Assembly: GCF_001735745.1 (NCBI RefSeq)
Contig: NZ_CP017260.1
Span: 420,001-452,000 of the forward strand
Reading direction: 5' to 3'
Source: Formosa sp. Hel1_33_131
GTDB lineage: Bacteria > Bacteroidota > Bacteroidia > Flavobacteriales > Flavobacteriaceae
DNA length: 32,000 nt
The notes beneath the pieces were generated by a model, which ran no database searches, was not told the origin of the DNA, and saw nothing but the letters and a program-made list of their open reading frames with translations. A program made the translations under genes and the position numbers. This document shows, in pieces, positions 3,519 through 32,000 of the stretch; position 1 is the stretch's first letter, and the number at the start of each line of letters is the position of its first letter.

Positions 3519-4136
3519 TTAGGATTTAAGAGAGAGTTCAAATGGAATTCTATTGGTAATACTTCGTCCAAGCGTGACTTCGTCGGCATATTCTAATTCG
3601 TCTCCAACAGAAATTCCGCGGGCGATGGTAGAGATGACGACCTCTGTATCTTGAATTTGTTTAAAAATATAAAAATTAGTGGTATCTCCTTCCATCGTAG
3701 AACTCAACGCAAAAATGAGCTCTTTAGTATTCCCCGTACGAACTTTTTCAATGAGACTGTTAATTTTTAAATCGTGAGGTCCTACGCCATCCATGGGAGA
3801 GATTTTACCGCCCAATACATGATAGACGCCTCTATACGAAGACGTACCCTCAATAGCCATGACGTCTCTGATGTCTTCCACCACACACACCACATCTTGT
3901 TGACGGTTGGTGTTGATGCAAATTTCACACAATTCGGAGTCACTAATATTGTGACAGTTCTTACAAAAATTAATATTTTGGCGCATCTTCTGCAAGGCTT
4001 CCGTCAAGTGAAGTGTTTGCGACTCTGGCTGACGCATCAAATGAAGCACAAGCCGTAAAGCGGTTCGACGTCCGATGCCGGGCAATTGCGCAACTTCGTC
4101 CACGGCGCTTTGTAATAATTTAGAAGAAAATTCCAT
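3519..4136 (-). CDS. recR: Recombination protein RecR
   Basis: 205 aa with a helix-hairpin-helix N-terminus ([12 protein letters not shown]), a C4 zinc finger ([16 protein letters not shown]) and a Toprim region ([14 protein letters not shown]...). Confidence 0.9.
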
Positions 4137-4208
4137 GACGCAAATTTAGATAAAATTAAACGAATTTATGTCATGAAATTAAACATCTCTAAACACTCAA
4201 AACAGTGC

Positions 4209-7199
4209 TTAGTTTATAATTAATTTTTTAGTGATTTCTTGATTTAATGTATTTACTTTTAGGAAATACAGTCCTTGTGGAGCCTGTAGTTCTATTTCAG
4301 GATTTTGGGATAGATCTCTGTTTTTCTCATAAAAAACCAACTTCCCAAGGGGATCAAAAATTTTGATTGTCACTGGATCGTTTAATTTCCAATTCAATTT
4401 AAAAGTTCCCGTTGTTGGATTTGGTGACACGATCAAATCTGATATTTGTAAATTGTCCACTCCTAAAGCGTCCGGATCAAACAAGTTAACACGCCAAAGT
4501 CCACGTCCATAAGTTGCAACGTATAGCTTACTATCTGCCGTATTTATTTCAAGTTCACGAACTTGAATATTTGGCAGTCCTGTATCATAAGACGTCCAAG
4601 TTGTTTCATTATTTCTGAGGTAATAGACTCCATAATTCATCCCTAAGTATAATATATCTTCATTGTAAGTCGTATCCCACACCAATGCCAAGGCACTAAA
4701 ATTTGGTAAGTCATGAGATTCAACACTCCAATTTTCGCCACCATCACTTGAAATATAAACCTTATCGTTGGAATTTGTTGCAATCGCTAACTTATTTGAA
4801 ATTGTAGGATGAATGGCAATCGAATTAATGTTTCCAGAAAATCCTGTTACTTGCGTCCAATCTCCTTCTGATCCTCCATTTGTGGTTTTGTAAAGGTTCT
4901 CTCCAAATGCAGCATATAGGGTATTGCTATCAGAGGGTGCTATTTTTAAATGATTTGCAGTACTACCAAAATCTTGAGAGATAGAACTCCAAGTAGCTCC
5001 TGCATCAAGGGATTTATATATTTCACGGTATCCAGAGTATAATGTAGCACCAACATTAGGATCCTGTTCAAAAGGGGTGACCCAGCTACCGTCTGGACCT
5101 TCAACATCATCAAAATATCCATGGTTGATCCAACTATAACTTGCTCCTTGATCGTATGATTTGTATAAAGTCCCATTTTGGGAGGTTCCATACAAAATAT
5201 TAGAATCTGAATGGTCTACAAATGACTCCATTCCATCAGCCCCTAACCAATCGTACCAGATGCCATCGGCTCTATAAACAGAAGTCCCATTATCTTGAGA
5301 TCCTCCGGAAACAATCACAGGATCTGTTTGACTGATTCCAATTTTATAAAATTGACGAATTCCCAAACCAGCGGTTAAATCGGTATAGTAAGTACTACTA
5401 ACATTCAGTGGGTCATTAGCAACAAAAATACCGCCATCACTCCCCACATATATTTTGTCATTATGATAAATCATAAGATCAATGTCTGCATGGCAGTACC
5501 CAATATTTTGATCTGCTGCATTTCCAGGCACCCATTGTGAAGTAATATTAAAATCGGTTCCACCATTTGTAGAACGCCATGATAAAATCCCTGCAATATG
5601 AACATCCTCTGCATCAGATGGGTTGACAATAACATCCATATCTCTTGGTGCCTGACCTCTATCGTCACTTGCATCAGATGTATACCCAAAATAATTTTTC
5701 CCTGTATGGTCTAATTTAGTAAAATTGGCACCACTGTCAGTAGATTTATAAAACCCTCCAAATATGCCGCCAGCTGCTTCTAGTATATACACAACATCCG
5801 GATTATCAGCAGAAACACCTATCATTTTTGGACCATTTGAAAAATCATTATCACTCAATTCAAACCCATTTTCGAAAATAATACCCAATGAAGAATCTTC
5901 AATGGATACGGCATCTAAAGTTGTGGGTTTTCCATAATTATTAGTCACTTCAAATGCAATATAATAATCGTCTGAAGCATCTGGTAAAGCTAATGTAACA
6001 TTTTGCCAATTTGGCACTGAGTCAGGATAGTTCGCTAATTCTATCCATTCACCATTAATAGATGTTTTGTAAAGTACTCGAAACCCATTTAAGTAGGGAC
6101 CAAGCCATCTAAGATTCGAAAAAGAAAAATTGAGTTCTGGCGATGCTGCATTACTCAAATCTAAAGCCGGAGTAACTAATCTTGTAATTGGATTCTCATA
6201 ACTTGGCAAGTAAAAATTCGCCATCATATCTCCTTGAACAGGACTAACAGAGCCCCAAGGATTTGATGCCCCAATAGTCCAATTTGTTTGACCTTGCACA
6301 TTTTCTTGAGTCCAAGGGCTAAACAAATCATCGTAAAAGGTTAAACCGCCATCCGTGGATTTAAAAAATAAATTTCCAGATGCGTAAATCGTATTGGTAT
6401 CTCCAGGCTTAAACTCTACGTCGTAGCCTCGACTAGAGCTACCGTGGATTTTCTCCCAATTGACACCAGCATCCGTAGATTGAAAAACTCCAGAAGATTC
6501 TGTTGAACAAAATAGTTGATTCGTATTCGATGGATTGATTAAAATTTTATTTACATTTCCATTTCCTGTATCGGCTAATTCGTTCCAAGTTGCCCCGGCA
6601 TCTGTAGATTTAAAAATAACACCACTATTACTTCCCCAAAAATAAATATTAGAATTTGTGGGATGGATCGTTAATGCATACACATTAATATTAGAGAGGT
6701 TATCTGTTAATGCATTCCAAGTCGCACTCCCATCTGTGGTTTTCCAAACTCCACCAGTTGGGGAACCTATAATCATATGATTCTCGTTATTAGGATCAAT
6801 TCCTATACTTGTGATTCGTCCCACTCCTGGATTCCACCCCGAAGTTTGATTCCACTCATAAGGCCCTAACTGTTCCCAATTGGCAACCCTACGTCTTTGT
6901 CCCAATTGCGTGGAATTATTTTTGTAAGAGTTATAACGTTCTAGTTCGTTATAGTAAAACGAAGGCGATTTTAAAAGTCCATTGTCATCTTGCATACGAA
7001 GTGCATCATACTCCCAACGTTTGTAACTTTTATAACCCGTTCCTCTACCTTTATCTCGATTTTCAAAATAAGCTTCTGCAGCATTTTGAACTTCTAAAAC
7101 TGTATATTGGTTTGAGTTCATCATCTCAAGATAGTCTTGAGCTTCAATAGATAAAAATGACAATAGGAAAACCCCTAAAATAAAGGTTGATTTTTTCAT
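4209..7199 (-). CDS. Secreted BNR/Asp-box repeat (sortilin-Vps10 / GH74-like beta-propeller) protein with a T9SS C-terminal sorting domain; the long paralog, carrying an extra internal domain
   Basis: 996 aa with an N-terminal signal peptide (MKKSTFILGVFLLSFLSIEAQ). It has many S-x-D-x-G-x-T-W type Asp-boxes (TTDGSATWNAL, STDAGATWNEL, STDAGVNWEKI, SLDAGATWSSI, SSDGGENWSV). The C-terminus (VSPNPTTGTFKL...IKIFDPLGKLVF...GLYFLKVNT...KKLIIN) is typical of Por/T9SS type A sorting domains. Confidence 0.75.
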   Translation of the reverse strand: MKKSTFILGVFLLSFLSIEAQDYLEMMNSNQYTVLEVQNAAEAYFENRDKGRGTGYKSYKRWEYDALRMQDDNGLLKSPSFYYNELERYNSYKNNSTQLGQRRRVANWEQLGPYEWNQTSGWNPGVGRITSIGIDPNNENHMIIGSPTGGVWKTTDGSATWNALTDNLSNINVYALTIHPTNSNIYFWGSNSGVIFKSTDAGATWNELADTGNGNVNKILINPSNTNQLFCSTESSGVFQSTDAGVNWEKIHGSSSRGYDVEFKPGDTNTIYASGNLFFKSTDGGLTFYDDLFSPWTQENVQGQTNWTIGASNPWGSVSPVQGDMMANFYLPSYENPITRLVTPALDLSNAASPELNFSFSNLRWLGPYLNGFRVLYKTSINGEWIELANYPDSVPNWQNVTLALPDASDDYYIAFEVTNNYGKPTTLDAVSIEDSSLGIIFENGFELSDNDFSNGPKMIGVSADNPDVVYILEAAGGIFGGFYKSTDSGANFTKLDHTGKNYFGYTSDASDDRGQAPRDMDVIVNPSDAEDVHIAGILSWRSTNGGTDFNITSQWVPGNAADQNIGYCHADIDLMIYHNDKIYVGSDGGIFVANDPLNVSSTYYTDLTAGLGIRQFYKIGISQTDPVIVSGGSQDNGTSVYRADGIWYDWLGADGMESFVDHSDSNILYGTSQNGTLYKSYDQGASYSWINHGYFDDVEGPDGSWVTPFEQDPNVGATLYSGYREIYKSLDAGATWSSISQDFGSTANHLKIAPSDSNTLYAAFGENLYKTTNGGSEGDWTQVTGFSGNINSIAIHPTISNKLAIATNSNDKVYISSDGGENWSVESHDLPNFSALALVWDTTYNEDILYLGMNYGVYYLRNNETTWTSYDTGLPNIQVRELEINTADSKLYVATYGRGLWRVNLFDPDALGVDNLQISDLIVSPNPTTGTFKLNWKLNDPVTIKIFDPLGKLVFYEKNRDLSQNPEIELQAPQGLYFLKVNTLNQEITKKLIIN

Positions 7200-7252
7200 A
7201 ATAAAGTTATAATTGGTTAACTTCGTAAAAGTAATCTAATTTACTTTAACAC

Positions 7253-8710
7253 ATGAGTTCCTTTTTAATTTTAACGCTCCTTTTAGGTTATTTTTTAGTT
7301 TTAATCCTCATTTCTTTCTTAACGGGAAAAAACGATTCTAATGTCGATTTTTTTAAAGCGGGTAAACAATCACCTTGGTATCTAGTGGCTTTTGGAATGA
7401 TTGGCGCGTCGCTGTCGGGAGTTACTTTTATATCTGTTCCAGGTTGGGTAGAAGCATCTCAGTTTAGTTATTTTCAAGTTGTCTTGGGTTATATGGTGGG
7501 TTACGTTGTGGTCGCTTTTGTGCTGCTTCCTGTGTATTATAAATTAAATTTAACATCCATTTACGAGTATCTTTTTCAACGCTTTGGATTTGTAAGTCAT
7601 AAAACGGGGGCCTTTTTCTTTTTTATATCCCGAGTTTTAGGTGCTGCATTTCGATTGTATTTAGTAGCGATTGTGTTGCAGCAATTTGTTTTTAGTGATT
7701 GGAATGTCCCTTTCGAAATCACTGTTATCATTTCAATTTTATTAATCTGGATTTATACGTTTAGAGGGGGTATTAAAACCATTGTTTGGACGGATACGCT
7801 TCAAACCTTGTTTATGATTACTGCGGTGGTATTGTCCATTTATTTTATTACGGATAGTTTGGGGTGGAGTTTCACAGAGTTTTTAGCCTCAGACGAACTA
7901 AAATCTTACAGTACTATTTTTAATACGGATAGCATTTTAGATAAAAATTACTTTCTGAAATCCTTTTTTGGAGGTCTGTTTGTTACGATTTGCATGACGG
8001 GATTGGATCAGGATATGATGCAAAAAAACTTGACGTGCAAATCACTTAAGGATGCTCAGAAAAATATGCTTTCGTTCAGTGTTGTACTTACATTCGTAAC
8101 CTTTTTATTTATGCTGCTGGGAGCTCTTTTGTTTATTTATGCCAAACAAAATAATATTGCGATTCCGTTATTGGACGGCAAACCCAAAACAGATTTATTA
8201 TTTCCAGAAATCGCCCTCAATAGTGGATTGGGAATCACGCTAGGCATCACTTTTATCCTTGGATTGATAGCCGCTGCGTATAGCAGTGCCGATAGTGCCC
8301 TGACTTCTTTGACGACGTCTTTTTGTGTGGACATCCTAGACATGAAAGACAAATCCGAACAAGAACAAAAAACGATTCGTAAAAAAACACATATCGGCAT
8401 GAGTGTGCTTTTGGTGGTGGTCATCATCGCGTTCAAATACACGCTAAACTCCAATGTGATTAGCAGCTTATTGACCGTGGCGGGTTATACCTACGGGCCT
8501 CTTTTAGGGTTGTTTGCTTTTGGAATTTTTACAGACTATAAAATAAAAGACCGCTATGTCTGGATGGTCGCCTTGGTTTCGGTTGCAATTGTATTTATGC
8601 TTGGGAATATACCCGCAGAAAACTTAGGGGGCTATGTGATTGGCTACGAGCTTCTGCCTCTTAATGGGCTCTTTACTTTTATAGGATTAATGTTGATTCG
8701 ACGTAAATAA
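7253..8710 (+). CDS. Sodium:solute symporter (SSS) family transporter
   Basis: 485 aa and highly hydrophobic with multiple predicted TM segments. The N-terminal pattern [34 protein letters not shown] is typical of SSS-family permeases. Substrate cannot be inferred. Confidence 0.75.
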
Positions 8711-8784
8711 CCTCAACTATAAAAGGCGACTTAATGTTAGATTAGCCGCCTATATATCTTCGAGTGTTACAGAAATATTAGAAC

Positions 8785-11313
8785 TTATTTTACAATCAAC
8801 TTTTTAGTGATTTCGCTATTCGCAGTGTTTACTTTTAAGAAATATAATCCTTTAGGAGCCTTTAATTCTATTTCAGGATTCTGTGATAAATCTCTGTTTT
8901 TTTCATAAAAGACTAACTTCCCTAGGGGGTCAAATATTTTTACAGTCACTAGTTTGTTTAATTTCCAATCTAGTTTAAACACCCCAGTTGAGGGGTTTGG
9001 AGAGACTTCTAAACCTGAGATATCAAATGCGTCCAATCCAGCACTATTAGGGTTGTATAAATCAACGCTCCAGAGACCACGCCCATAAGTGGCTGCATAT
9101 ATTTTTTTATCTGCAGAGTTTATCTCTAGCTCATTTACCAATACATTTGGTAATCCAGTGTTATAAGCGATCCAAGAGGTCGTGTTTTCTCTCAAATAAT
9201 AAATTCCATAATTCATTCCTACATATAAAATATCTTCATTATAAGTAGTATCCCAAACAAGCGCAAGTGCAGCAAAACTTGGAAGGTCAAGAAGCATTGA
9301 GGTCCATGTCGCACCAGCATCAGTAGAAACATAAATCTTATCGGACGAATTTGTTGCAATGGCTAGTTTGTTTGGATTTGTAGGGTGAATGGCAATGGAA
9401 TTAATATCCCCAGAAAACCCTGTCAATGACGACCAGTAAGATAATAAACTCCCTCCGCCTGTTGTTGTTTTAAAAAGACTGGATCCTAACGAAGCATATA
9501 TGACATCACTATCAGATGGTGCAATCTTCAAATGGTCCGCATTGCTGCCAAAGTTTTGTGAAATGGAACTCCAGTTCTGACCTCCATTAGTAGATTTATA
9601 TATTTGATCATATCCGGAATAAATAGTATTGGAGTCGCTTGGGTCTTGCTCAAAAGGGGTAACCCAATTACCTGACTTGCCATCAGGAGATGGAAGAAAA
9701 ATAATACTTTGTCCCTGATTGGTGGATTTATATAAACTTCCAAATTGTGAAGTTCCATACAAAATATTCGAATCAGAATGATCGACAAAAGATTCCATAC
9801 CATCCGCACCCAACCAGTCCTCCCAAGTTTTATCCGCTCTGTAAACAGAAGTCCCATTATCTTGAGCACCGCCAGTAACGATGACAGGGTTTGTTTGGCT
9901 AATTCCTATTCTATAAAATTGACGAATTCCCAAACCAGAAGTTAAGTCTGTATAATAAGTGCTACTAACATTCAACGGGTCATTGGCTACAAAAATACCG
10001 CCATCGCTCCCTACATATAGCTTATTGTTCTGATAAATCATAATGTCAATATCGGCATGGCAATAGCCTATATTTTCAGTCGTTGCAGTTCCTGGCTGCC
10101 ATTGAGATGTGATATTAAAATTGACACCGCCATCTGTAGAGCGCCACGAAAGTACGCCCGCAATATGGACATCATCTGCATCAGTTGGATTGACGACGAT
10201 ATCCATATCTCTTGGAGCTTGGCCACTGGTGTCATCCGCAGTAGAACTGTAACCAAAATAATTTTTTCCTGTGTGATCTAATTTGGTGAAATTTTCGCCA
10301 CTATCGGTGGACTTATGAAATCCTCCAAAAGCACCACCGGAAGCCTCAAGCAAATAGACAACATCTGGACTTGCCGCAGAAACACCAATCATTTTTGGCC
10401 CAATGTTAAAGTCATTAGCCCCTGAAATAAAGTTGTTATTTATTTTTGAAAAGGATTGACCAGAATCTGTGGACTTGAAAAAACCATTTCCTGATGCATA
10501 TACTACACTAAAATCTCCAGGTTTAAATTCTATATCATAGGCCGTGGTAGATTCAGAGTGAATTAAACTCCAATTGACGCCTCCATCAGTAGATTTATAG
10601 ACACCGTCATACCGGCTAGAACAAAACATTTTGCTTGTATCAGAAGGGTTAATTAAAATCTTATTGACAACTCCATTTCCTGTATCTGCTAATTGATTCC
10701 AAGTTGCACCAGCATCCGTTGATTTAAAAATGATGCCTGAAGAACTTCCCCAATAATAAATATTAGAATTAACAGGATCGATAGTCAATGCATACACAAA
10801 AATATTTGAGAGGTTGTCGGTGAGTGCCGACCAATTACTTCCCCCATCAACTGTTTTCCAAACACCGCCTCCTGGCGATCCAACAATAATATGATTGGCA
10901 TCTTTAGTATCAATAGCAATACTTGTAATTCTTCCGACTCCTGGGTTCCATCCAGACGTTTGATTCCAAGATGTGGGTCCTAATTGTACCCAATTTGAAA
11001 CCAAACTTGTCTGACTTGATGGTGTAACATTGTTTATTTCCGAATTGTACCGTTCTAACTCATCAATGTAAAATGAAGACGACTTCAAAAATCCATTTTC
11101 GTCTTGCATTCGAAGGCCATTATATTCCCAACGCTTAAAAGTTTTGTATCCAGAACCTCTACCAGTGCCTTTGATTTCAAAATACGCTTCAGCTTTATTC
11201 TGAATTTCCTGAACTGTAAATTCCTCTGAATTAATCATCTCAAGGTATTCCTGAGATTCAGCATATAAAAATGATAATAAATAGGTAAGTAAAATAAGAG
11301 TAGGCTTATTCAT
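8785..11313 (-). CDS. Secreted BNR/Asp-box repeat protein with a T9SS C-terminal sorting domain; the short paralog of 4209..7199
   Basis: 842 aa, collinear with the 996-aa protein over the signal peptide, N-terminal region, Asp-box propeller and a near-identical T9SS C-terminal domain (KIFDPLGKLVFYEKNRDLSQNPEIEL.AP.GLYFLKVNT). It lacks the internal segment of about 150 aa. Confidence 0.75.
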   Translation of the reverse strand: MNKPTLILLTYLLSFLYAESQEYLEMINSEEFTVQEIQNKAEAYFEIKGTGRGSGYKTFKRWEYNGLRMQDENGFLKSSSFYIDELERYNSEINNVTPSSQTSLVSNWVQLGPTSWNQTSGWNPGVGRITSIAIDTKDANHIIVGSPGGGVWKTVDGGSNWSALTDNLSNIFVYALTIDPVNSNIYYWGSSSGIIFKSTDAGATWNQLADTGNGVVNKILINPSDTSKMFCSSRYDGVYKSTDGGVNWSLIHSESTTAYDIEFKPGDFSVVYASGNGFFKSTDSGQSFSKINNNFISGANDFNIGPKMIGVSAASPDVVYLLEASGGAFGGFHKSTDSGENFTKLDHTGKNYFGYSSTADDTSGQAPRDMDIVVNPTDADDVHIAGVLSWRSTDGGVNFNITSQWQPGTATTENIGYCHADIDIMIYQNNKLYVGSDGGIFVANDPLNVSSTYYTDLTSGLGIRQFYRIGISQTNPVIVTGGAQDNGTSVYRADKTWEDWLGADGMESFVDHSDSNILYGTSQFGSLYKSTNQGQSIIFLPSPDGKSGNWVTPFEQDPSDSNTIYSGYDQIYKSTNGGQNWSSISQNFGSNADHLKIAPSDSDVIYASLGSSLFKTTTGGGSLLSYWSSLTGFSGDINSIAIHPTNPNKLAIATNSSDKIYVSTDAGATWTSMLLDLPSFAALALVWDTTYNEDILYVGMNYGIYYLRENTTSWIAYNTGLPNVLVNELEINSADKKIYAATYGRGLWSVDLYNPNSAGLDAFDISGLEVSPNPSTGVFKLDWKLNKLVTVKIFDPLGKLVFYEKNRDLSQNPEIELKAPKGLYFLKVNTANSEITKKLIVK

Positions 11314-23317: not shown

Positions 23318-23728
23318 CTAGTTTCCAGAGTAAGTCACAAAATTACGAGGGGTTTCATAAAGCGTCACTTCCAAATCTAAATTAGATTCGAGGACAGCTT
23401 TTAGCTTATCGTAAATGACCACCACAATGTTTTCGGCAGTGGGGTTTAAATCTTTAAATTCAGGTACGTCCAAGTTTAAATTCTTGTGATCAAACGCATC
23501 TTCTACTTCCGATTTGATAAAGTTTTTCAGAATTTTAACGTCCATCACATACCCTGTTTCTGGATCGATCTCTCCCGTCACACTGACCGTAAGGTCGTAA
23601 TTGTGCCCGTGAAAATTAGGGTTGTTGCATTTCCCAAAAATGGCATCGTTTTTTTCAAAACTCCAATCGGGGCGGTACAATCTATGGGCGGCATTAAAAT
23701 GTGCTTTTCTACTTATGGTGACTTTCAT
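23318..23728 (-). CDS. queD: 6-carboxy-5,6,7,8-tetrahydropterin synthase (6-pyruvoyl-tetrahydropterin synthase family)
   Basis: 136 aa. KAHFNAAHRL...CNNPNFHGHNY...TGYVMD are the zinc-binding His and catalytic motifs of PTPS/QueD. Confidence 0.85.
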   Translation of the reverse strand: MKVTISRKAHFNAAHRLYRPDWSFEKNDAIFGKCNNPNFHGHNYDLTVSVTGEIDPETGYVMDVKILKNFIKSEVEDAFDHKNLNLDVPEFKDLNPTAENIVVVIYDKLKAVLESNLDLEVTLYETPRNFVTYSGN

Positions 23729-24248
23729 TGGTGGTGTTTATATGTTCGTAAAATTTTTCAAATATGATTTTAAACCATTCGGTGTACAGTGTTGGCTGCT
23801 GTTTGATATCGGCTTTGACGGCTTCCAAAGGCATCCATTTCCAGGCTTCCACTTCTTCCGTATTGATGACGGGAGCTGCTTCGTAAGAACCCACCATAAT
23901 GTGGTCCAATTCGTGTTCGGTGAGCCCATTGTCAAAAGGCGCTTTGTAAATAAACCAAGTGGTTTCTTTGAGGGGCGTCACAAAACCCATTTCTTCTTGC
24001 AAACGGCGTGTGCCGGCTTCCAAATTGGATTCTCCTACCCGTTGGTGGGAACAGCAGGTATTGGTCCACAACAGCGGCGAATGGTATTTATGAGCCGCAC
24101 GTTGTTGCAGCATCAATTCGTTTTGGGCATTAAATATAAACACCGAAAACGCTCGGTGCAATACCGCCTTTTCATGGGCTTCCATTTTTGGCATGGTGCC
24201 TATTTGTTCGTCCTGTGCATTCACAAGAATGACCTGTTCTTCCATCAT
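23709..24248 (-). CDS. idi: Isopentenyl-diphosphate delta-isomerase, type 1 (Nudix fold)
   Basis: 179 aa. HRAFSVFIFN...LLQQRA..K...PLLWTNTCCSH...E....A..RRL.EEMG is the canonical type 1 IDI core with the catalytic Cys and Glu contexts. It overlaps the queD start by 20 nt. Confidence 0.85.
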   Translation of the reverse strand: MMEEQVILVNAQDEQIGTMPKMEAHEKAVLHRAFSVFIFNAQNELMLQQRAAHKYHSPLLWTNTCCSHQRVGESNLEAGTRRLQEEMGFVTPLKETTWFIYKAPFDNGLTEHELDHIMVGSYEAAPVINTEEVEAWKWMPLEAVKADIKQQPTLYTEWFKIIFEKFYEHINTTNESHHK

Positions 24249-24712
24249 GCCACAAAAATATCAACTATATCTTTAAGTTTTACTAATTTCTTGCTAAAAA
24301 ACGGGTTTTGTAAGACGAGCCAAATTTCATGTTTCCATAAAAAATAATTATTTAATTGTAATATATTATAGTCTTGTTTAATGTTTGCCTACTTAAGATA
24401 AACACTGTCAGCTATTTATAAAAATAAAGCGCCATATTTTTTGGATATTAAATAAAATATTTTAATTTCAATTTTTGATTGAGACCCCAGTCTAAATCTT
24501 CAAAATGAATTTAACCGAATGGAGGGAGTGTTTTATATAAATTTTAGTGGAATGAGGGCACTATACATACCTACATGGAATGTATTATAACACTTATAAA
24601 AAAATAATTACCACATTAATGTTGTATAAACTAGTTAGCTGCAGGGGAAAAACGAACATACAACCATTGAAACCTTTCCAATGAAAATTAAATAATAATA
24701 AAAACTATTGAT

Positions 24713-25753
24713 ATGGCTATTAAACTTGACACAAGTACTATAACGATTGAAAATATCATCGTACATAGCATACCTAAACATCGAAAAAGTGACTTTTCTA
24801 TTAAACCACAATATAGTGAACAAGAAAGTTCTCTTCCTGATGCATTAAGAGTGTTTTTTAAGGACAAAATCATCAGCTCTTTGCAAAGTAATAAAGAATT
24901 ACGTGTTTGTTATAATCCTAAAAATGAATCTCCTGTTTCCATTTATATCAATCAAATAATTAATTCGGGTGGTACTGATTTAATTGAGCAGTCAAAATTA
25001 ATAACCAAATATTTATTTGAAGTACAAAACGGACAAAATGCATCAGGAATTTTGGTGATAATATTTGGAAAAATAAATGATAACAAAACTTGCATTATTA
25101 TCAAACTTGAAAGAGATGAAGGAGCACAATTAGTATTAGACCCTGTGACTAAATCTTTTAATATTAAGGATGTGCAAGATTTAATGCTTACAAAGAAAAC
25201 AAAAATATATAAAGTAGGCTTATTTATAAACAAGTCTGAACTTAAGATAAAATATGATGGCAGTACAGCTGATTTGCAAATAGATCCAAAAACAAAAAAA
25301 GAAGTTACAACTTGGTTTATTGAAAGATTTTTGGGATGTATTCCTCTTGAAGACCCAAGACATACAACAAAGAAATTTTACACCTACACAACTACTTTTA
25401 TAAAGACAATTGAGGATCCAATAAAACAAGCTAAATATAGACAAGACTTTAATTCGTATTTGCAGAAAAACTCACAAAGAATTAGTGCAAAGGAGTTCGC
25501 AGATGATTACATGGAAACTACTGATAAAAACAACTATAATAAATATCTAAAGAACAAAAACTTTAGAATGTCAGAGTTTCCCAAGGCTAATGATTATATA
25601 CAAAATAAAATAAAAACAATAACCATAACTTTTGCAAATGACATCGCCATTGTTGGTAAAAAAGGAACATTTGATAAAAATGTAAAACTGGAAAGTCAAG
25701 AAGATGGGAATACAAAAGCAGAAATTATTTCTAAAGTAAAAAGCATTTGTTAA
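24713..25753 (+). CDS. Divergent NdpA/YejK (NA37)-like nucleoid-associated-protein-family member (cassette gene A)
   Basis: 346 aa. Motif order is collinear with gene C and with NA37 proteins: IENIIVHSIPK near the N-terminus, ASGILVIIFGKINDNKTCIIIKLERDEG mid-protein, and WFIERFLGCIPLEDPRHTTKKFYTYTTTFIK. The stop TAA (25751-25753) overlaps the ATG of gene B. Family assignment is by eye and needs an HMM. Confidence 0.5.
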   Translation: MAIKLDTSTITIENIIVHSIPKHRKSDFSIKPQYSEQESSLPDALRVFFKDKIISSLQSNKELRVCYNPKNESPVSIYINQIINSGGTDLIEQSKLITKYLFEVQNGQNASGILVIIFGKINDNKTCIIIKLERDEGAQLVLDPVTKSFNIKDVQDLMLTKKTKIYKVGLFINKSELKIKYDGSTADLQIDPKTKKEVTTWFIERFLGCIPLEDPRHTTKKFYTYTTTFIKTIEDPIKQAKYRQDFNSYLQKNSQRISAKEFADDYMETTDKNNYNKYLKNKNFRMSEFPKANDYIQNKIKTITITFANDIAIVGKKGTFDKNVKLESQEDGNTKAEIISKVKSIC

Positions 25754-26736
25754 TGACTAATGTTCAGAATATAGCTGAATTATGGGATGAGGAACAGCCT
25801 AGTTATGAAAGATTAGGAGCACTCGTTAGTTCATTCATTAAAGATATTATTACAGATTACGAAATATTACCAGAGATTCATTATAGAACCAAGGAGCTAT
25901 TAAGCATAATAAAAAAGATAAAGAAAAAGAAAGTTCAGAAAGAATACTCTTATCAAGACTTAAAGGATAAATTAGGAATTCGTATAATTTGCACATTTCA
26001 AGAAGAAATGGATATTATTGATGAATTCCTTAAAGAAAACTTTGTCATTGTAAATGCAGAATATAAACTAGACAATTTAGATTTTAATAAACTTGGCTAT
26101 ATTTCTAATCATTATGATGCCAAAATAAATTGCATAATAAAAGGGTTTGAACAGTTTACAGAACTTAATAATTACATTTTTGAAATTCAGGTGAGGACAC
26201 TTAATCAACACGCATGGTCAAACGCTGCCCATTCACTTTCTTATAAGCAGGAATCAGAACTCCCCATTAAATTAAAAAGAAAAGTATATCGCCTACTTTC
26301 ATTGTATGAGCTTGCAGATGATGAATTTTCCAGTGTTAATGAAGTATTAAAGAAACAACATCAAAGTAACCCAACTTATGCATTACTAAAAAAATTAGAA
26401 GGTAAATTTTATAAATACGCAAAATTTGATTACGATAGGGAAATATCATTAAAGGATATAAACACCATACTAAATTACTTTGAAACAGAAAATGAACGGC
26501 AAGAATTAATCAATGATATTAATAATTTTATTATAAATAACGAGCAAAAAATTCAAAGAATTTATGAAGAAAATAGAGGTCGATACCACAAAATACTATT
26601 CCTGACTCAACCTGAAATTTTCATTATTTGGTATATGCTCCAAAACAATACTTTTACAATAGAAGATAATTGGGACAGCGATTTTGATAGCGAAGATATT
26701 GAACAAATTAAAACCCTCTGGGGAAATGAACTATAA
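25753..26736 (+). CDS. Stand-alone RelA/SpoT-domain nucleotidyltransferase (small alarmone synthetase / toxSAS-like) with an uncharacterised C-terminal extension of about 140 aa (cassette gene B)
   Basis: All synthetase motifs are present in order: YRTKELLSIIKK (RxKxxxSxxxK), DKLGIRII (D-x-x-G-x-R), GYISNHYD (GYxSxH) and FEIQVRTLNQHAWSNAAHSLSYK (E-x-Q-x-RT..QH.W....H...YK). There is no HD hydrolase, TGS or ACT domain. I use the ATG at 25753 (TAATG junction) rather than the TTG at 25747 in the ORF track. Confidence 0.8.
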   Translation: MTNVQNIAELWDEEQPSYERLGALVSSFIKDIITDYEILPEIHYRTKELLSIIKKIKKKKVQKEYSYQDLKDKLGIRIICTFQEEMDIIDEFLKENFVIVNAEYKLDNLDFNKLGYISNHYDAKINCIIKGFEQFTELNNYIFEIQVRTLNQHAWSNAAHSLSYKQESELPIKLKRKVYRLLSLYELADDEFSSVNEVLKKQHQSNPTYALLKKLEGKFYKYAKFDYDREISLKDINTILNYFETENERQELINDINNFIINNEQKIQRIYEENRGRYHKILFLTQPEIFIIWYMLQNNTFTIEDNWDSDFDSEDIEQIKTLWGNEL

Positions 26737-26739
26737 GAT

Positions 26740-27789
26740 ATGTTAGATTTTACTAATTGCAACATAGGCAACGTGATTGCCCATCAAATTGGAAATAAAA
26801 CCAATAAAGAAGGTATTATTATCTCAAATTTATTACTTGATACAAATGACCCAAGATTGAGGGAACTATTGATTAAATACTTTTTATTCCCATTCTCCAA
26901 TATGGAAGAGTTTTATTCATTTACTTTTTCTGATGGGAATTTTAACTTGAACCCGTTATATCAACTTACAAGTGATGTGTTTTCAAACGAGGGTAACTTC
27001 ATAGAAATAAGTAAAAGTATCGCTCAACATTTATACGAAGTATCGCTACACCCACAAATTAAGGCTGGAGATTTATTCGTCTCAACTTTTAATAATATTA
27101 AAGTTGATAATATATTGGTAAATGGTTTTGGTGTTTTCAAGTCTGAAAATAGACAACAATTTTTAAAATTAAATAAAAAGTCAAATGAATTTGCTTTAAA
27201 TTATGATGATGGTATCAATATTGAAAAACTTGACAAAGGATGTCTAATCTTAAATATAGGAAAAGAAAAAGGATACAAGGTTTATGTTATTGACAAATCT
27301 AATAAATCAAGTGAAGCTCAATACTGGAAAGATTTTTTTCTAAATATTCGACCTACTAAGACTGGATACCATCTTACAAATCAATTTCTAGGAATAGCGA
27401 AACAATTCGTGACAGAGCAATTAATAGAAGAATTTGAAGTAAATAAAACTGACCAAATTGATTTATTAAATCGCTCTGTAGATTATTTCAAAACTAACGA
27501 TAAATTTGAAAAAGAAGACTTTGAAAAATCAGTTTTTCAAAGTGAGGAGTTAATAAAATCTTTTAGAAGTTTCGATAACTCATATAGAGATAATAACGAT
27601 ATAGAACTTGCAAATAGTTTTGACATATCTTCACAAGCAGTAAAAAAGCAAGTTAGGGCTTTTAAAAAAGTATTGAAACTTGACAAGAATTTTCACATTT
27701 ACATACACGGAAATAAAGAACTAATAGAACAAGGAGTGGAAAAAGATGGTAGAAAATATTATAAAATTTATTATAATGATGAGAGTTAA
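26740..27789 (+). CDS. NdpA/YejK (NA37)-family nucleoid-associated protein, Bacteroidota type (cassette gene C)
   Basis: 349 aa. It has N-terminal IGNVIAHQIGNKTNKEG, a central SIAQHLYEVSLHPQIKAGDLFV, YWKDFFLNIRP and C-terminal LKLDKNFHIYIHGNKELIEQG...KYYKIYYNDE. These match my memory of Bacteroidota proteins annotated as nucleoid-associated protein (PF04245). The start is 3 nt after the gene B stop. Confidence 0.65.
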   Translation: MLDFTNCNIGNVIAHQIGNKTNKEGIIISNLLLDTNDPRLRELLIKYFLFPFSNMEEFYSFTFSDGNFNLNPLYQLTSDVFSNEGNFIEISKSIAQHLYEVSLHPQIKAGDLFVSTFNNIKVDNILVNGFGVFKSENRQQFLKLNKKSNEFALNYDDGINIEKLDKGCLILNIGKEKGYKVYVIDKSNKSSEAQYWKDFFLNIRPTKTGYHLTNQFLGIAKQFVTEQLIEEFEVNKTDQIDLLNRSVDYFKTNDKFEKEDFEKSVFQSEELIKSFRSFDNSYRDNNDIELANSFDISSQAVKKQVRAFKKVLKLDKNFHIYIHGNKELIEQGVEKDGRKYYKIYYNDES

Positions 27790-27866
27790 CCTCCTGTGCA
27801 AAGCCTCCCTAGTTAGCGCAACTAAGCTTAGTCAAAGTCATTAGGTAAAATTAGAAAAACAACAAA

Positions 27867-28640
27867 ATGAAAACAACCTTATCAATCATATTTTTATTCA
27901 TTTCAATGTTAACTTTTGGGCAAGAGAAATGGACTTATCAAAATGATAATATTTATAAAATTAACAAAGTTAAAGCTCGAAAGTGGTTTAATGGAAACAA
28001 ACTAACCGCAACAACCTTTTACAATAAAGAGGGACAAATGATAAAATTTCAGCACGAGCCATTTCTTGGCGGTGAGCAAAGAACTATTTATTTTGAGTAT
28101 AATGAAAAAGGGAAATTGATAAATCAAGTGGACACAACACGAAATATCAAACCTGATAAAAAGGCTTTAAAAAAATTAAAAAAAATGGGACTTGATTTAT
28201 CATCAAATTTCAGAAATAACAGACCAGAAATTGAAGTCTTGAAATTTAATATTGAATACGAAGATGACAAACTTATCAAATTAACTAAATTCAATGCTAA
28301 CGGGACATTAAACACCGTAGATCATTTTGAGAACAATGGACGAAAGCAAGTTCGTGAATGGTACAGAAATGGAGAAAAATATCAAGAAAGTATTACAGAA
28401 TACATAGATGACTTTCACAAAGAAAAATACTATGGTTGGGAAATTAGACCTAATCTTGAAAAGAGTAAGTGGAATTACTCTTTTGAATATGTATACGAAA
28501 ATGGAATAATAAAAGAGTTTACTCGATTCGATAATGGGCAAAAGAAAGAAACCACCAAGATGGAATATGATAATAATGGACTTTTAATTAAAGCTATTTA
28601 TTACACGACTGAAAGATTCGAATATGAATATTATAAATAA
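27867..28640 (+). CDS. Secreted hypothetical protein with degenerate YD/Rhs-like (or YwqK/MORN-like) repeats
   Basis: 257 aa with a signal peptide (IIFLFISMLTFGQE). It has recurring Y-x-Y-(D/N/E)-x-x-G-x-L-I units: YFEYNEKGKLINQ, IEYEDDKLIKLTKFNANGTL, YVYENGIIKEF and MEYDNNGLLIKAIYY. It is AT-rich like the cassette. Confidence 0.5.
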   Translation: MKTTLSIIFLFISMLTFGQEKWTYQNDNIYKINKVKARKWFNGNKLTATTFYNKEGQMIKFQHEPFLGGEQRTIYFEYNEKGKLINQVDTTRNIKPDKKALKKLKKMGLDLSSNFRNNRPEIEVLKFNIEYEDDKLIKLTKFNANGTLNTVDHFENNGRKQVREWYRNGEKYQESITEYIDDFHKEKYYGWEIRPNLEKSKWNYSFEYVYENGIIKEFTRFDNGQKKETTKMEYDNNGLLIKAIYYTTERFEYEYYK

Positions 28641-28653
28641 CATTCCCCTGCTG

Positions 28654-28690
28654 CCGCACGAATCCTTTCGTGTGGTTCGTACAAAAAACT
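28654..28690. repeat. Direct repeat copy 1 (hairpin plus conserved tail)
   Basis: ccgcacgaa-tcc-tttcgtgtgg followed by ttcgtacaaaaaact. The 30-nt segment aatcctttcgtgtggttcgtacaaaaaact (28661-28690) matches 30095-30123 with one indel and one substitution. Confidence 0.65.
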
Positions 28691-28806
28691 AATACCAATA
28701 TAAAGGACTGACTGCATCAAACCTTCAATTTCGTACAACAGCAAAGCCAATTTTCGGAACGATTTTTGAGACAGAAATTGTGTTGAATTCTACAAATAAT
28801 AAATAC

Positions 28807-29871
28807 ATGAAAAACAAGAAAAAAGTACGCATTCTCACCCTAGATGGCGGAGGCATTAGAGGCATCATTCCTGCTACTATTATTAAATACATCGAGGAAT
28901 ATCTAGAGAAAAAAATACCCGGAACCACTATTGCCGATCACTTTGACTTTATTTCTGGAACGAGTACGGGAGGCATCCTAACCGCTCTTTACTTAACCCC
29001 TCAGGATGGAGATCACACCAAAGCAAAATATGCTGCTTCAGAGGCATTGGATTTTTATGTAAAAGAAGGCTACGGTATTTTTAACGCCTCAAAGATTAGT
29101 AATTGGAAACGATTGTGGGGACTCAGAAGTGCGACCTTGTTTAGCCCTCGAAATTTAGAAAATTTACTTCAAAAGAAATTTGGAGACCTTCTGATCAGTG
29201 CGCTCATAAAACCCTGCCTTATTACCACTTATAATATGAATACCAAATCTTCTTTCTTTTTTACAAGCAATGAAGACACTTCTAAAAGGGAATTTTATGT
29301 ACGGGACGTTTTACGGTCAACCTCAGCAGCGCCAACCTACTTTCCTCCAGCAAAAATAAAAAATATGGCAGCAAACGTCCAAGAAAATAAGGCGTTGGCT
29401 GAAATGATAAATTTGGACGGAGGCGTATTTGCCAACAACCCTACAATGTGTGCATACGCAGAAGCTAGAAACACAAACTTTAAAGACCGAAATAACAATG
29501 AACCCTCCGCAAGTGATATGTACATTTTATCCATTGGTACAGGCGGAGGCGGCTTTGAACTTCAGCAAAAAGAAAAAAGCGCTAATTGGAGTCTTTTAAC
29601 ATGGGCAAAGACCATCCCAGATATTATGATGGATGGAAGTATTGATACCGTAGCGTTTCAAATGAATGAGATCAATGGAACCCTCCAGCCGAATGATCCT
29701 GGGGCCTATATGCGGATTGATACGCCAACAGAAGATCAAAATTACGCTGCTGACATGTCTGATGCTTCGCCAGAAAACATTAAAAAACTGATGAATGCCG
29801 GTATCAAAACTCTGGAATACGCAAAAGCAAATGGTTTGGATGACTTTCTAGATGGGCTTATAGATCAATAA
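28807..29871 (+). CDS. Patatin-like phospholipase
   Basis: It has the oxyanion motif ILTLDGGGIRGI, the nucleophile elbow GTSTGG (GxSxG) and the catalytic Asp motif DGGVFANNP. I prefer the ATG at 28807 (MKNKKKVRIL...) to the GTG at 28780 in the ORF track. Confidence 0.85.
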   Translation: MKNKKKVRILTLDGGGIRGIIPATIIKYIEEYLEKKIPGTTIADHFDFISGTSTGGILTALYLTPQDGDHTKAKYAASEALDFYVKEGYGIFNASKISNWKRLWGLRSATLFSPRNLENLLQKKFGDLLISALIKPCLITTYNMNTKSSFFFTSNEDTSKREFYVRDVLRSTSAAPTYFPPAKIKNMAANVQENKALAEMINLDGGVFANNPTMCAYAEARNTNFKDRNNNEPSASDMYILSIGTGGGGFELQQKEKSANWSLLTWAKTIPDIMMDGSIDTVAFQMNEINGTLQPNDPGAYMRIDTPTEDQNYAADMSDASPENIKKLMNAGIKTLEYAKANGLDDFLDGLIDQ

Positions 29872-29883
29872 GTTCTCTTACGT

Positions 29884-30096
29884 ATGAAACCTGTTAACAA
29901 TCCAATTTTTAATTATACCGAATTCGGTACAATTAAAAATCAAGTGGGATTAAACCGTTTTACGCTCTCTGTTAAAAAATGGATTAATGCTACAAATACG
30001 ATTGGAGTAGCTGCGAAAACAGGTAGATATGGAGGAACTTATGCTCATTCAGACATCGCTCGCTCTCGCACGAAATCGAAGATTCAACGAAGTTAA
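29884..30096 (+). pseudogene. KilA-N domain gene fragment, truncated at both ends
   Basis: The 70-aa ORF contains FTLSVKKWINATNTIGVAAKTGRYGGTYAHSDIA. This matches the conserved core of Bacteroidota KilA-N proteins (..F.LS...WI..TNAIGI..K.GRYGGT.AH.DIA.EF..). Full-length proteins are far longer. Similarity stops at about 30060, where repeat copy 2 begins. Confidence 0.6.
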
Positions 30097-30123
30097 TCTT
30101 TCGTGTGGTTAGTACAAAAAACT
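30067..30123. repeat. Direct repeat copy 2 (same stem with a 23-nt expanded loop, plus the conserved tail)
   Basis: cgcacgaaa (30067-30075), a 23-nt loop, tttcgtgtgg (30099-30108), then ttagtacaaaaaact. See copy 1. Confidence 0.65.
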
Positions 30124-30132
30124 CCGCTATCT

Positions 30133-32000
<1,868 letters not shown>

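Follow-up and report, generated by a model that had tools for sequence, protein, structure and literature searches.

The PANGU class comprises bicistronic operons that centre on a YejK-like nucleoid-associated protein (NAP), and in type I PANGU the NAP Pag1A is paired with Pag1B, a toxic small alarmone synthetase (toxSAS) of the GRel subfamily (bioRxiv 10.64898/2026.04.06.716658, April 2026). We have analyzed a stretch of 32,000 nucleotides (nt) from Formosa sp. Hel1_33_131 (contig NZ_CP017260.1, positions 420,001 to 452,000, forward strand), referred to below as the window, in which a gene for a small alarmone synthetase (SAS)-type protein, here called B, lies between two genes for YejK-like proteins, A and C. 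By analogy with Pag1B, B probably acts as the effector of a type I PANGU-like system that protects against phage by abortive infection. Its C-terminal half, we infer, would be a partner-docking switch and not an autoinhibitory sensor of phage proteins.

Pag1B has a toxSYNTH domain at its N-terminus, connected by a helical linker to an acidic, 'DNA-mimicking' (DMK) C-terminal domain whose fold is unknown, and is by itself an inactive tetramer (bioRxiv 10.64898/2026.04.06.716658). A dimer of Pag1A binds the DMK domain with a dissociation constant (KD) of 9.4 nM in a strongly asymmetric 2:1 complex solved by cryo-EM, and the Pag1A-Pag1B complex converts ATP and GTP, GDP or GMP to AMP and (pp)pGpp; Pag1B does not modify tRNA (bioRxiv 10.64898/2026.04.06.716658). 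Residues R258, R306 and H314 of Pag1B are at the interface (bioRxiv 10.64898/2026.04.06.716658). According to the same preprint, Pag1A stays bound to DNA until the nucleases of phage T4 degrade the chromosome, and T4 escapes by denA mutation. Neither Pag1B alone nor Pag1A together with Pag1B is toxic, and the pair becomes toxic with a Pag1A that is deficient in DNA binding (bioRxiv 10.64898/2026.04.06.716658). Pag1B's SYNTH domain on its own is inactive, hence the DMK domain is not an internal antitoxin (bioRxiv 10.64898/2026.04.06.716658). Some cluster-1 PANGU operons include a DUF4231/SLATT gene, and the preprint makes no mention of two-NAP operons or of a counterpart of C (bioRxiv 10.64898/2026.04.06.716658).

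CapRel (for instance CapRel SJ46, PDB 7ZTB) is a single-chain toxSAS with a C-terminal regulatory domain that is used in abortive infection, a layout that B resembles. The pseudo-ZFD at its C-terminus both inhibits the enzyme in cis and serves as a sensor for phage capsid proteins, and CapRel pyrophosphorylates tRNA as its output. Unlike in CapRel, the C-terminal domain (CTD) of B is free of Cys and the partner is an operon-encoded, host-type DNA-binding protein; CapRel aligns to the N-terminal domain of B alone. RelQ (SAS1) and RelP (SAS2) are chromosomally conserved housekeeping enzymes of about 210–230 amino acids (aa) that lack a CTD. Among solved proteins their catalytic domains come closest to that of B, with the same motif set, but B is patchily distributed and falls below the cut-off of the YjbM equivalog. 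Like the YejK/NdpA proteins of the NA37 family, A and C match PF04245, and the close relatives of C are stand-alone chromosomal genes. Unlike YejK/NdpA, A and C are encoded in a mobile operon around what appears to be an enzyme toxin, and A belongs to a diverged, effector-coupled lineage.

Gene B and its synthetase domain

The operon and the two domains of B are located in the window as follows.

24713–25753, plus strand: gene A, NA37/YejK-like NAP of 346 aa, basic with an isoelectric point (pI) of 9.2, putative Pag1A-type partner (Pfam NA37, E 9.5e-20)
25753–26736, plus strand: gene B, small alarmone synthetase-type protein of 327 aa (ATG at 25753, TAA at 26736)
25753–26307, plus strand: B residues 1–185, synthetase (toxSYNTH-like) domain (Pfam PF04607, phmmer against the PDB, Foldseek)
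26347–26733, plus strand: B residues 199–327, acidic all-helical CTD, proposed to dock a NAP as the counterpart of the Pag1B DMK domain (AlphaFold2, profile searches)
26740–27789, plus strand: gene C, second NA37 NAP of 349 aa, mildly acidic with a pI of 5.8 (Pfam NA37, E 1.8e-33, whole profile)

In B an N-terminal RelA/SpoT synthetase domain is followed by a long helix and then by the acidic helical CTD, and its start Met is matched at the equivalent position in relatives by alignment. A preliminary description, made from the DNA letters and their translations, had called it a stand-alone RelA/SpoT enzyme. This holds for the domain content: RelA_SpoT (PF04607) is the sole Pfam match (residues 47–170, E 3.9e-17, 63 bits against a gathering cut-off of 27), and the Pfam scan found no HD, TGS, ZFD or ACT domain, so that the absence of the other domains of RelA/SpoT homologs (RSH) stands as claimed. 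It does not hold for the gene, which is the middle one of a packed three-gene operon.

The four motifs quoted in that description are all found in B, namely RTKELLSIIKK (residues 45–55), DKLGIR (residues 72–77), GYISNH (residues 115–120) and EIQVRTLNQHAWSNAAHSLSYK (residues 144–165), and an alignment of 19 related sequences (55–74% identity) shows no variation at their key residues. The nearest sequence in the PDB is SAS1 of B. subtilis (phmmer, E 1.3e-13), and with Foldseek the synthetase domain matched SAS1 (1e-8), RelP (about 1e-6) and CapRel (3e-4). With its invariant motifs, and with the alarmone synthetases SAS1/RelQ and RelP as its nearest solved relatives, the synthetase core looks intact for catalysis, in line with the catalytic competence proposed earlier. 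B was not recognised as a housekeeping YjbM/RelQ enzyme by the NCBIfam equivalog GTPPhKinYjbM (62.3 bits, below the cut-off of 320), and PADLOC gave a weak match to PDC-S33 (39.7 bits).

The motifs that were checked do not reveal the choice of substrate. The same NAP-triggered switch might therefore have another output, either pyrophosphorylation of the 3' end of tRNA, as for CapRel, FaRel2 and PhRel2, or synthesis of (pp)pApp. The fold that B has in common with CapRel (Foldseek E 3e-4) and the distance of B from the characterised proteobacterial enzymes (22% profile identity) would both allow this. We consider such an output unlikely, as the solved proteins nearest to B in both sequence and fold, SAS1/RelQ and RelP, are (pp)pGpp synthetases, the N-terminal domain of B, with a pI of 6.1, is not basic, and Pag1B made pppGpp with no labelling of tRNA (bioRxiv 10.64898/2026.04.06.716658).

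The C-terminal domain of B

The C-terminal half of B had been described as helical-looking, poor in Cys and unlike anything recognised, and all three points are borne out. Its translation contains no Cys, and AlphaFold2 (AF2) folded the CTD alone (residues 199–327) into a compact eight-helix bundle with a predicted local distance difference test score (pLDDT) of 89.8 and a predicted template modelling score (pTM) of 0.84. No Pfam family matched the CTD. Foldseek gave no match among the solved structures of the PDB, of which CapRel is one (best E 6.3), or among the predicted viral structures of BFVD (best E 2.1).

A predicted structure of B by itself, proposed earlier as a check, was also obtained with AF2 from the 19-sequence alignment (pLDDT 82.6, pTM 0.51). 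It has a confident N-terminal domain and a confident all-helical domain at residues 205–323, separated by a stretch of low confidence at about residues 150–200 that includes a long helix (172–203). The pTM of 0.51 fits two domains joined by a flexible link. The most invariant block of the family, YRLLSLYELADDEFS (B residues 179–193), sits in this low-confidence part of the model (pLDDT 52–62, window 26200–26360), which would fit a role in conformational change or in contacts within an oligomer.

The C-terminal half is conserved over its full length in the 19-sequence alignment and is acidic: residues 186–327 have a pI of 4.6, with 27 acidic and 16 basic residues, and the CTD has a pI of 4.3–5.3 in all members of the family. 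A search with the CTD only against 1.84 billion cluster representatives returned 140 proteins. Almost all of them are 315–340 aa long with the CTD at about positions 200–325, all eight that were sampled from this size class carry RelA_SpoT at the N-terminus, and the short matches resemble gene fragments. Because the search finds the CTD in that architecture alone, the domain appears to be a dedicated appendage of the B synthetase family and confined to it.

Two roles had been suggested for this half in the preliminary description, a CapRel-like autoinhibitory sensor of phage proteins and a docking site for a partner. The former finds no support, as the CTD is Cys-free and Foldseek matches it to no solved structure, CapRel among them. 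In PANGU, moreover, the synthetase domain shows no activity in isolation and the NAP is an activator, so that by analogy the C-terminal domain of B would not be an internal antitoxin. Partner docking is the best reading, through the correspondence with Pag1B of type I PANGU, and the CTD most likely docks the DNA-binding nucleoid protein encoded next door.

Relationship to type I PANGU

The locus shares with type I PANGU a YejK/NA37-like gene that lies directly upstream of a synthetase gene of about 330 codons in the same operon and orientation, and B is built like Pag1B, with a SYNTH domain at the N-terminus, an acidic domain at the C-terminus and a helical linker between them. Association with defence islands, spread across phyla and co-evolution of NAP and synthetase are further features in common.

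The link to the characterised Pag1A and Pag1B was made through intermediate pairs of NAP and synthetase genes, used as proxies. These two-gene NAP and RelA/SpoT pairs, whose genes overlap, were from an Ochrobactrum plasmid, Roseibium, Komagataeibacter, a Klebsiella IncFIB plasmid, a C. botulinum plasmid and a Streptomyces plasmid; the Klebsiella pair is preceded by a DUF4231/SLATT gene, as in some cluster-1 PANGU operons. A aligns end to end by BLASTP with the NAPs of the pairs from Klebsiella (2e-32), Streptomyces (1.5e-31) and C. botulinum (1.5e-28), and the best value for C against the same NAPs is 4e-7. Sequence comparison thus places A as an apparent orthologue of the effector-coupled NAPs of the Pag1A lineage.

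For the synthetases, B aligns with the Streptomyces protein over residues 41–327 (E 3.6e-24), and the profile of the B family aligns with that of the Ochrobactrum-type family over nearly its entire length (columns 2–324 against 2–325, probability 99.3%). In the Ochrobactrum-type proteins the G-loop Tyr is residue 129, and Pag1B of F. futtsuensis has it under that number too (Y129); in B the G-loop Tyr is Y116. The CTD profile gave a strong match to the Streptomyces CTD (9.5e-20) and weak but collinear matches to those of Klebsiella and C. botulinum; the CTD alone matched the proteobacterial CTD of Ochrobactrum type weakly (hhalign E 2.6e-3).

A and B accordingly seem to represent a Bacteroidota/actinobacterial-type branch of NAP-coupled synthetases. 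As the profile identity between B and the proteobacterial NAP-coupled synthetases is about 22%, B may form a sister subfamily to GRel. In this Bacteroidota/Streptomyces-type branch the CTD is weakly similar in sequence to the proteobacterial CTDs, and A, unlike in type I PANGU, is basic in most members.

The nucleoid-associated proteins A and C

Both NAPs score above the gathering cut-off of NA37 (PF04245; 24.6 bits), and the canonical YejK profile fits C (116.7 bits) better than A (71.7 bits). The possibility that A and C are recent paralogues was rejected, as the two have no similarity by BLASTP (E 0.22). PADLOC recognised neither protein, and no NA37 or Pag1 structure came up when the PDB was searched by sequence with A, B and C.

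The three genes are closely packed. A and B overlap by 1 nt, the ATG of B sharing a base with the stop codon of A (TAATG), and C begins 3 nt past the stop codon of B. Upstream of A lies a longer non-coding stretch, as seen from a reading of the sequence.

24249–24712, plus strand: AT-rich intergenic stretch of 464 bp upstream of A, presumed promoter region of the operon

A scan of positions 24200–30200 gave 37 sigma-70 promoter-like sites, which is not above the background of 29.6 expected from shuffled sequence, and terminator-like sites were not found in the same interval.

C belongs to a far larger NA37 family (more than 6,493 matches). Five relatives of C were sampled. Four C-like proteins with 60–64% identity are encoded by stand-alone genes in ordinary chromosomal settings of Bacteroidota, and the fifth lies within an A-B-C operon. 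Decayed operons were rejected as the origin of the stand-alone genes, as no remnants of A or B lie beside them. Operon-linked and stand-alone C sequences interleave when clustered by the unweighted pair group method with arithmetic mean (UPGMA), an identity-based clustering and not a proper phylogeny. The operon would appear to carry a captured copy of a stand-alone, host-type NAP of Bacteroidota as its gene C, from a lineage that differs from that of A.

The stand-alone C-type NAP genes recurrently adjoin, just downstream, genes for secreted Por_Secre_tail proteins of the type IX secretion system (T9SS). Such proximity to T9SS cargo was seen in loci L041–L044, L046 and L047, and one of the stand-alone genes adjoins an AbiEii gene.

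Distribution of the operon

Searches detect 351 members of the B family, of about 326 aa, and 36 loci were found among 185,579 species-representative genomes. The hosts are mostly Bacteroidota, joined by Campylobacterota, Cloacimonadota and one betaproteobacterium, Azovibrio. An A-type gene lies directly upstream of B wherever upstream DNA is available, and of the 34 informative loci 25 have a C-type gene immediately downstream of B, with a spacing of 0–10 nt between B and C in most of them. Nine loci consist of A and B only (three in Flavobacterium, and those of Pedobacter alpinus, Aequorivita, Azovibrio, Maribacter, Aquimarina and Roseivirga), and one B locus is disrupted. Genomes with A and B but no C include those of Flavobacterium soli, Maribacter chungangensis and Aequorivita soesokkakensis.

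Across the 22 complete loci the pairwise distances of the proteins are correlated (A-B 0.91, B-C 0.82, A-C 0.80; Mantel p <= 5e-4), and by this measure A, B and C appear to travel together. Since the deepest branches in a distance clustering of B are A-B only, the simplest history of C is a single gain followed by two losses. Immediate neighbours in other genomes were restriction-modification (RM) proteins of type I, II or IIG or candidate defence proteins in nine of ten sampled cases, the candidates being PDC-S02, a PDC-M62A/PtuA-like ATPase and a Schlafen/AlbA_2 protein. The A-B unit is rare, with a horizontal distribution and a setting among defence genes.

These data also bear on whether C has a part in the system or is a passenger, with A and B making up the whole and C travelling along or having been a target of insertion. 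C is missing from nine A-B loci, among them the deepest branches of B, C-type genes work as stand-alone genes elsewhere, and operon-linked and stand-alone copies interleave in the distance clustering, as a passenger might. Its tight spacing to B, its co-divergence with A and B (r about 0.8) and its retention in the operons of Campylobacterota and Cloacimonadota all argue against a pure passenger, as does its composition, which is that of the island and not that of the host. We therefore find a passenger role unlikely and regard C as a conserved accessory of the A-B-C branch.

Three further observations concern the relatives of the operon. In one locus from Chitinophagales (L005) two C-type NAP genes follow A-B in tandem (5990–7039 and 7183–8259), and the second NAP is 38% identical to the C of the window. 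In the three Flavobacterium loci with A and B only, a conserved protein of 462–474 aa is encoded on the same strand and its gene ends 13–38 nt upstream of A (L008 2560–3948, L009 2529–3923, L010 2505–3929). The protein contains a P-loop-like GTPKSGKTT and matched nothing in Pfam or PADLOC; it may be an alternative third component in place of C. A scan of viral contigs found no member of the B family. The filamentous Vibrio phage PQ189320 (8.1 kb) encodes at 3953–4963 a synthetase of 336 aa, which shows 33% identity to B over the N-terminal domain (E 6e-32), with a C-terminal part that does not align with B and no NAP gene nearby.

Proposed mechanism and the role of C

If the operon works as described for PANGU in the preprint, A would sit on chromosomal DNA in uninfected cells and B would be held as an inactive oligomer. 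Degradation of the chromosome by phage nucleases would release A, and a dimer of A would then clamp the acidic, DNA-like CTD, whereupon B would leave the inactive oligomer with its active site freed. Activated B would transfer pyrophosphate from ATP to GTP, GDP or GMP to give (pp)pGpp. Depletion of nucleoside triphosphates (NTPs) together with the burst of alarmone would bring transcription and translation to a stop, and the infection would be aborted. C might modulate the sensor, speculatively by joining A or the CTD as a further partner bound to DNA, or by buffering the threshold of activation.

Some points weigh against placing B in a system of the type I PANGU kind. The mechanism comes from a single preprint that has not been peer-reviewed, the connection to the characterised Pag1A and Pag1B runs through the proxy pairs, and we infer both the function at this locus and the substrate of B (nucleotide or tRNA). 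Type I PANGU is bicistronic, whereas this locus and 25 of 34 related loci have a three-gene operon; nine related loci are bicistronic and lack C, so that C is dispensable in some backgrounds.

The same genes could be arranged as a classical toxSAS toxin-antitoxin (TA) module. B would then be a constitutively active toxin, and an NA37 protein, most plausibly C, would be the antitoxin that binds the CTD, with B released when the antitoxin is lost or titrated during infection. All toxSAS enzymes described before PANGU are TA toxins (summarised in bioRxiv 10.64898/2026.04.06.716658), and the tight coupling and co-divergence of A, B and C would suit such a module, as would a C without an assigned role. 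Pag1B alone and Pag1A together with Pag1B are, however, non-toxic and Pag1A activates (bioRxiv 10.64898/2026.04.06.716658), A appears orthologous to NAPs of the activator type, and nine relatives persist as A-B pairs without a C that could act as antitoxin. A TA module is in our judgement quite improbable.

Within the type I PANGU reading favoured here, a two-sensor variant is conceivable, which we put forward tentatively. C would then act inside the switch, for example by pairing with A in an A:C hetero-clamp that grips the CTD, or it would serve, bound to DNA, as a buffer or decoy to set the threshold or counteract DNA-mimic proteins of the phage, and systems that lost C would use the resident chromosomal NAP. 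An A:C hetero-clamp would mirror the asymmetric Pag1A'/Pag1A'' pair of the cryo-EM structure. If this were so, a nucleoid protein of housekeeping type would be wired straight into immune signalling.

Systems of the A-B kind were already described in 2026, and the three-gene architecture with two NAPs is new. With a docking role, the unassigned half of the enzyme would gain a concrete function as the switch for a DNA-bound sensor, and the principle of defence by a NAP sensor would extend to a well-populated branch in Bacteroidota. The conserved three-gene form points to a host-type nucleoid protein that may have been captured by a defence operon. Natural A-B and A-B-C versions within one family could also help to show how nucleoid proteins set the threshold between safe and suicidal alarmone levels.

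Genomic island

The operon has a GC content of 0.27–0.29 against about 0.38 in the flanks, and the island is flanked by housekeeping genes that include NUDIX, PTPS, PMI and ligA. tRNA genes marking the island were not found. In near-identical strains the island occupies the same chromosomal site and differs in cargo. Window positions 23319–28647 are 98.4% identical to positions 4579–9913 of a same-species metagenome contig (L051), compared with about 94% in the flanks. The segment spans A-B-C plus PTPS and NUDIX upstream and a gene for a 257-aa protein downstream, and the difference in identity suggests that it was recently exchanged or swept.

The setting also allows B to be compared with a housekeeping or stress SAS, in which a RelQ-like enzyme tied to nucleoid proteins would link alarmone levels to the state of the chromosome, with no part in phage defence. 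That C-type NAPs are common as stand-alone chromosomal genes in Bacteroidota and that the island sits between housekeeping genes would be compatible with this. The 36 loci among 185,579 species genomes, patchily distributed across phyla, the low GC content of the island, the defence-gene neighbours in other genomes, the equivalog score (62 against a cut-off of 320 bits) and the island content that varies among strains of the same species make it very improbable. The earlier view that B is not a housekeeping enzyme agrees with its rarity, the low-GC island and the defence genes beside its relatives.

The 257-aa protein (27867–28640, plus strand) has a hydrophobic N-terminus and weak hints of YD-repeat and DUF4595, with no significant family match. 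Its gene was seen only in contigs of the same species; since it is not found beside A-B-C operons in other species, it is taken to be separate cargo of the island.

Further downstream, at 28780–29871 on the plus strand, lies a gene for a patatin-like phospholipase that resembles CapV, an effector of the cyclic-oligonucleotide-based anti-phage signaling system (CBASS). It scored 172.7 bits with the NCBIfam model CBASS_lipase, against a cut-off of 200, and matched the phospholipase effector of PADLOC with an E-value of 2.3e-63; a cyclase gene to pair with it was not found in the window. Near-identical strains (L051–L055) have two extra genes between the 257-aa gene and the patatin gene. These encode proteins of 443 and 131 aa, neither has a Pfam match, and both are deleted in the window.

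In related strains the patatin gene is followed by a gene for a KilA-N protein of 274 aa (L051 13380–14204). Its counterpart in the window is a stretch of 138 nt with 76.8% identity, which overlaps an open reading frame of 70 aa at 29884–30096 (plus strand) and, judging by this alignment, looks like a decayed remnant of the KilA-N gene.

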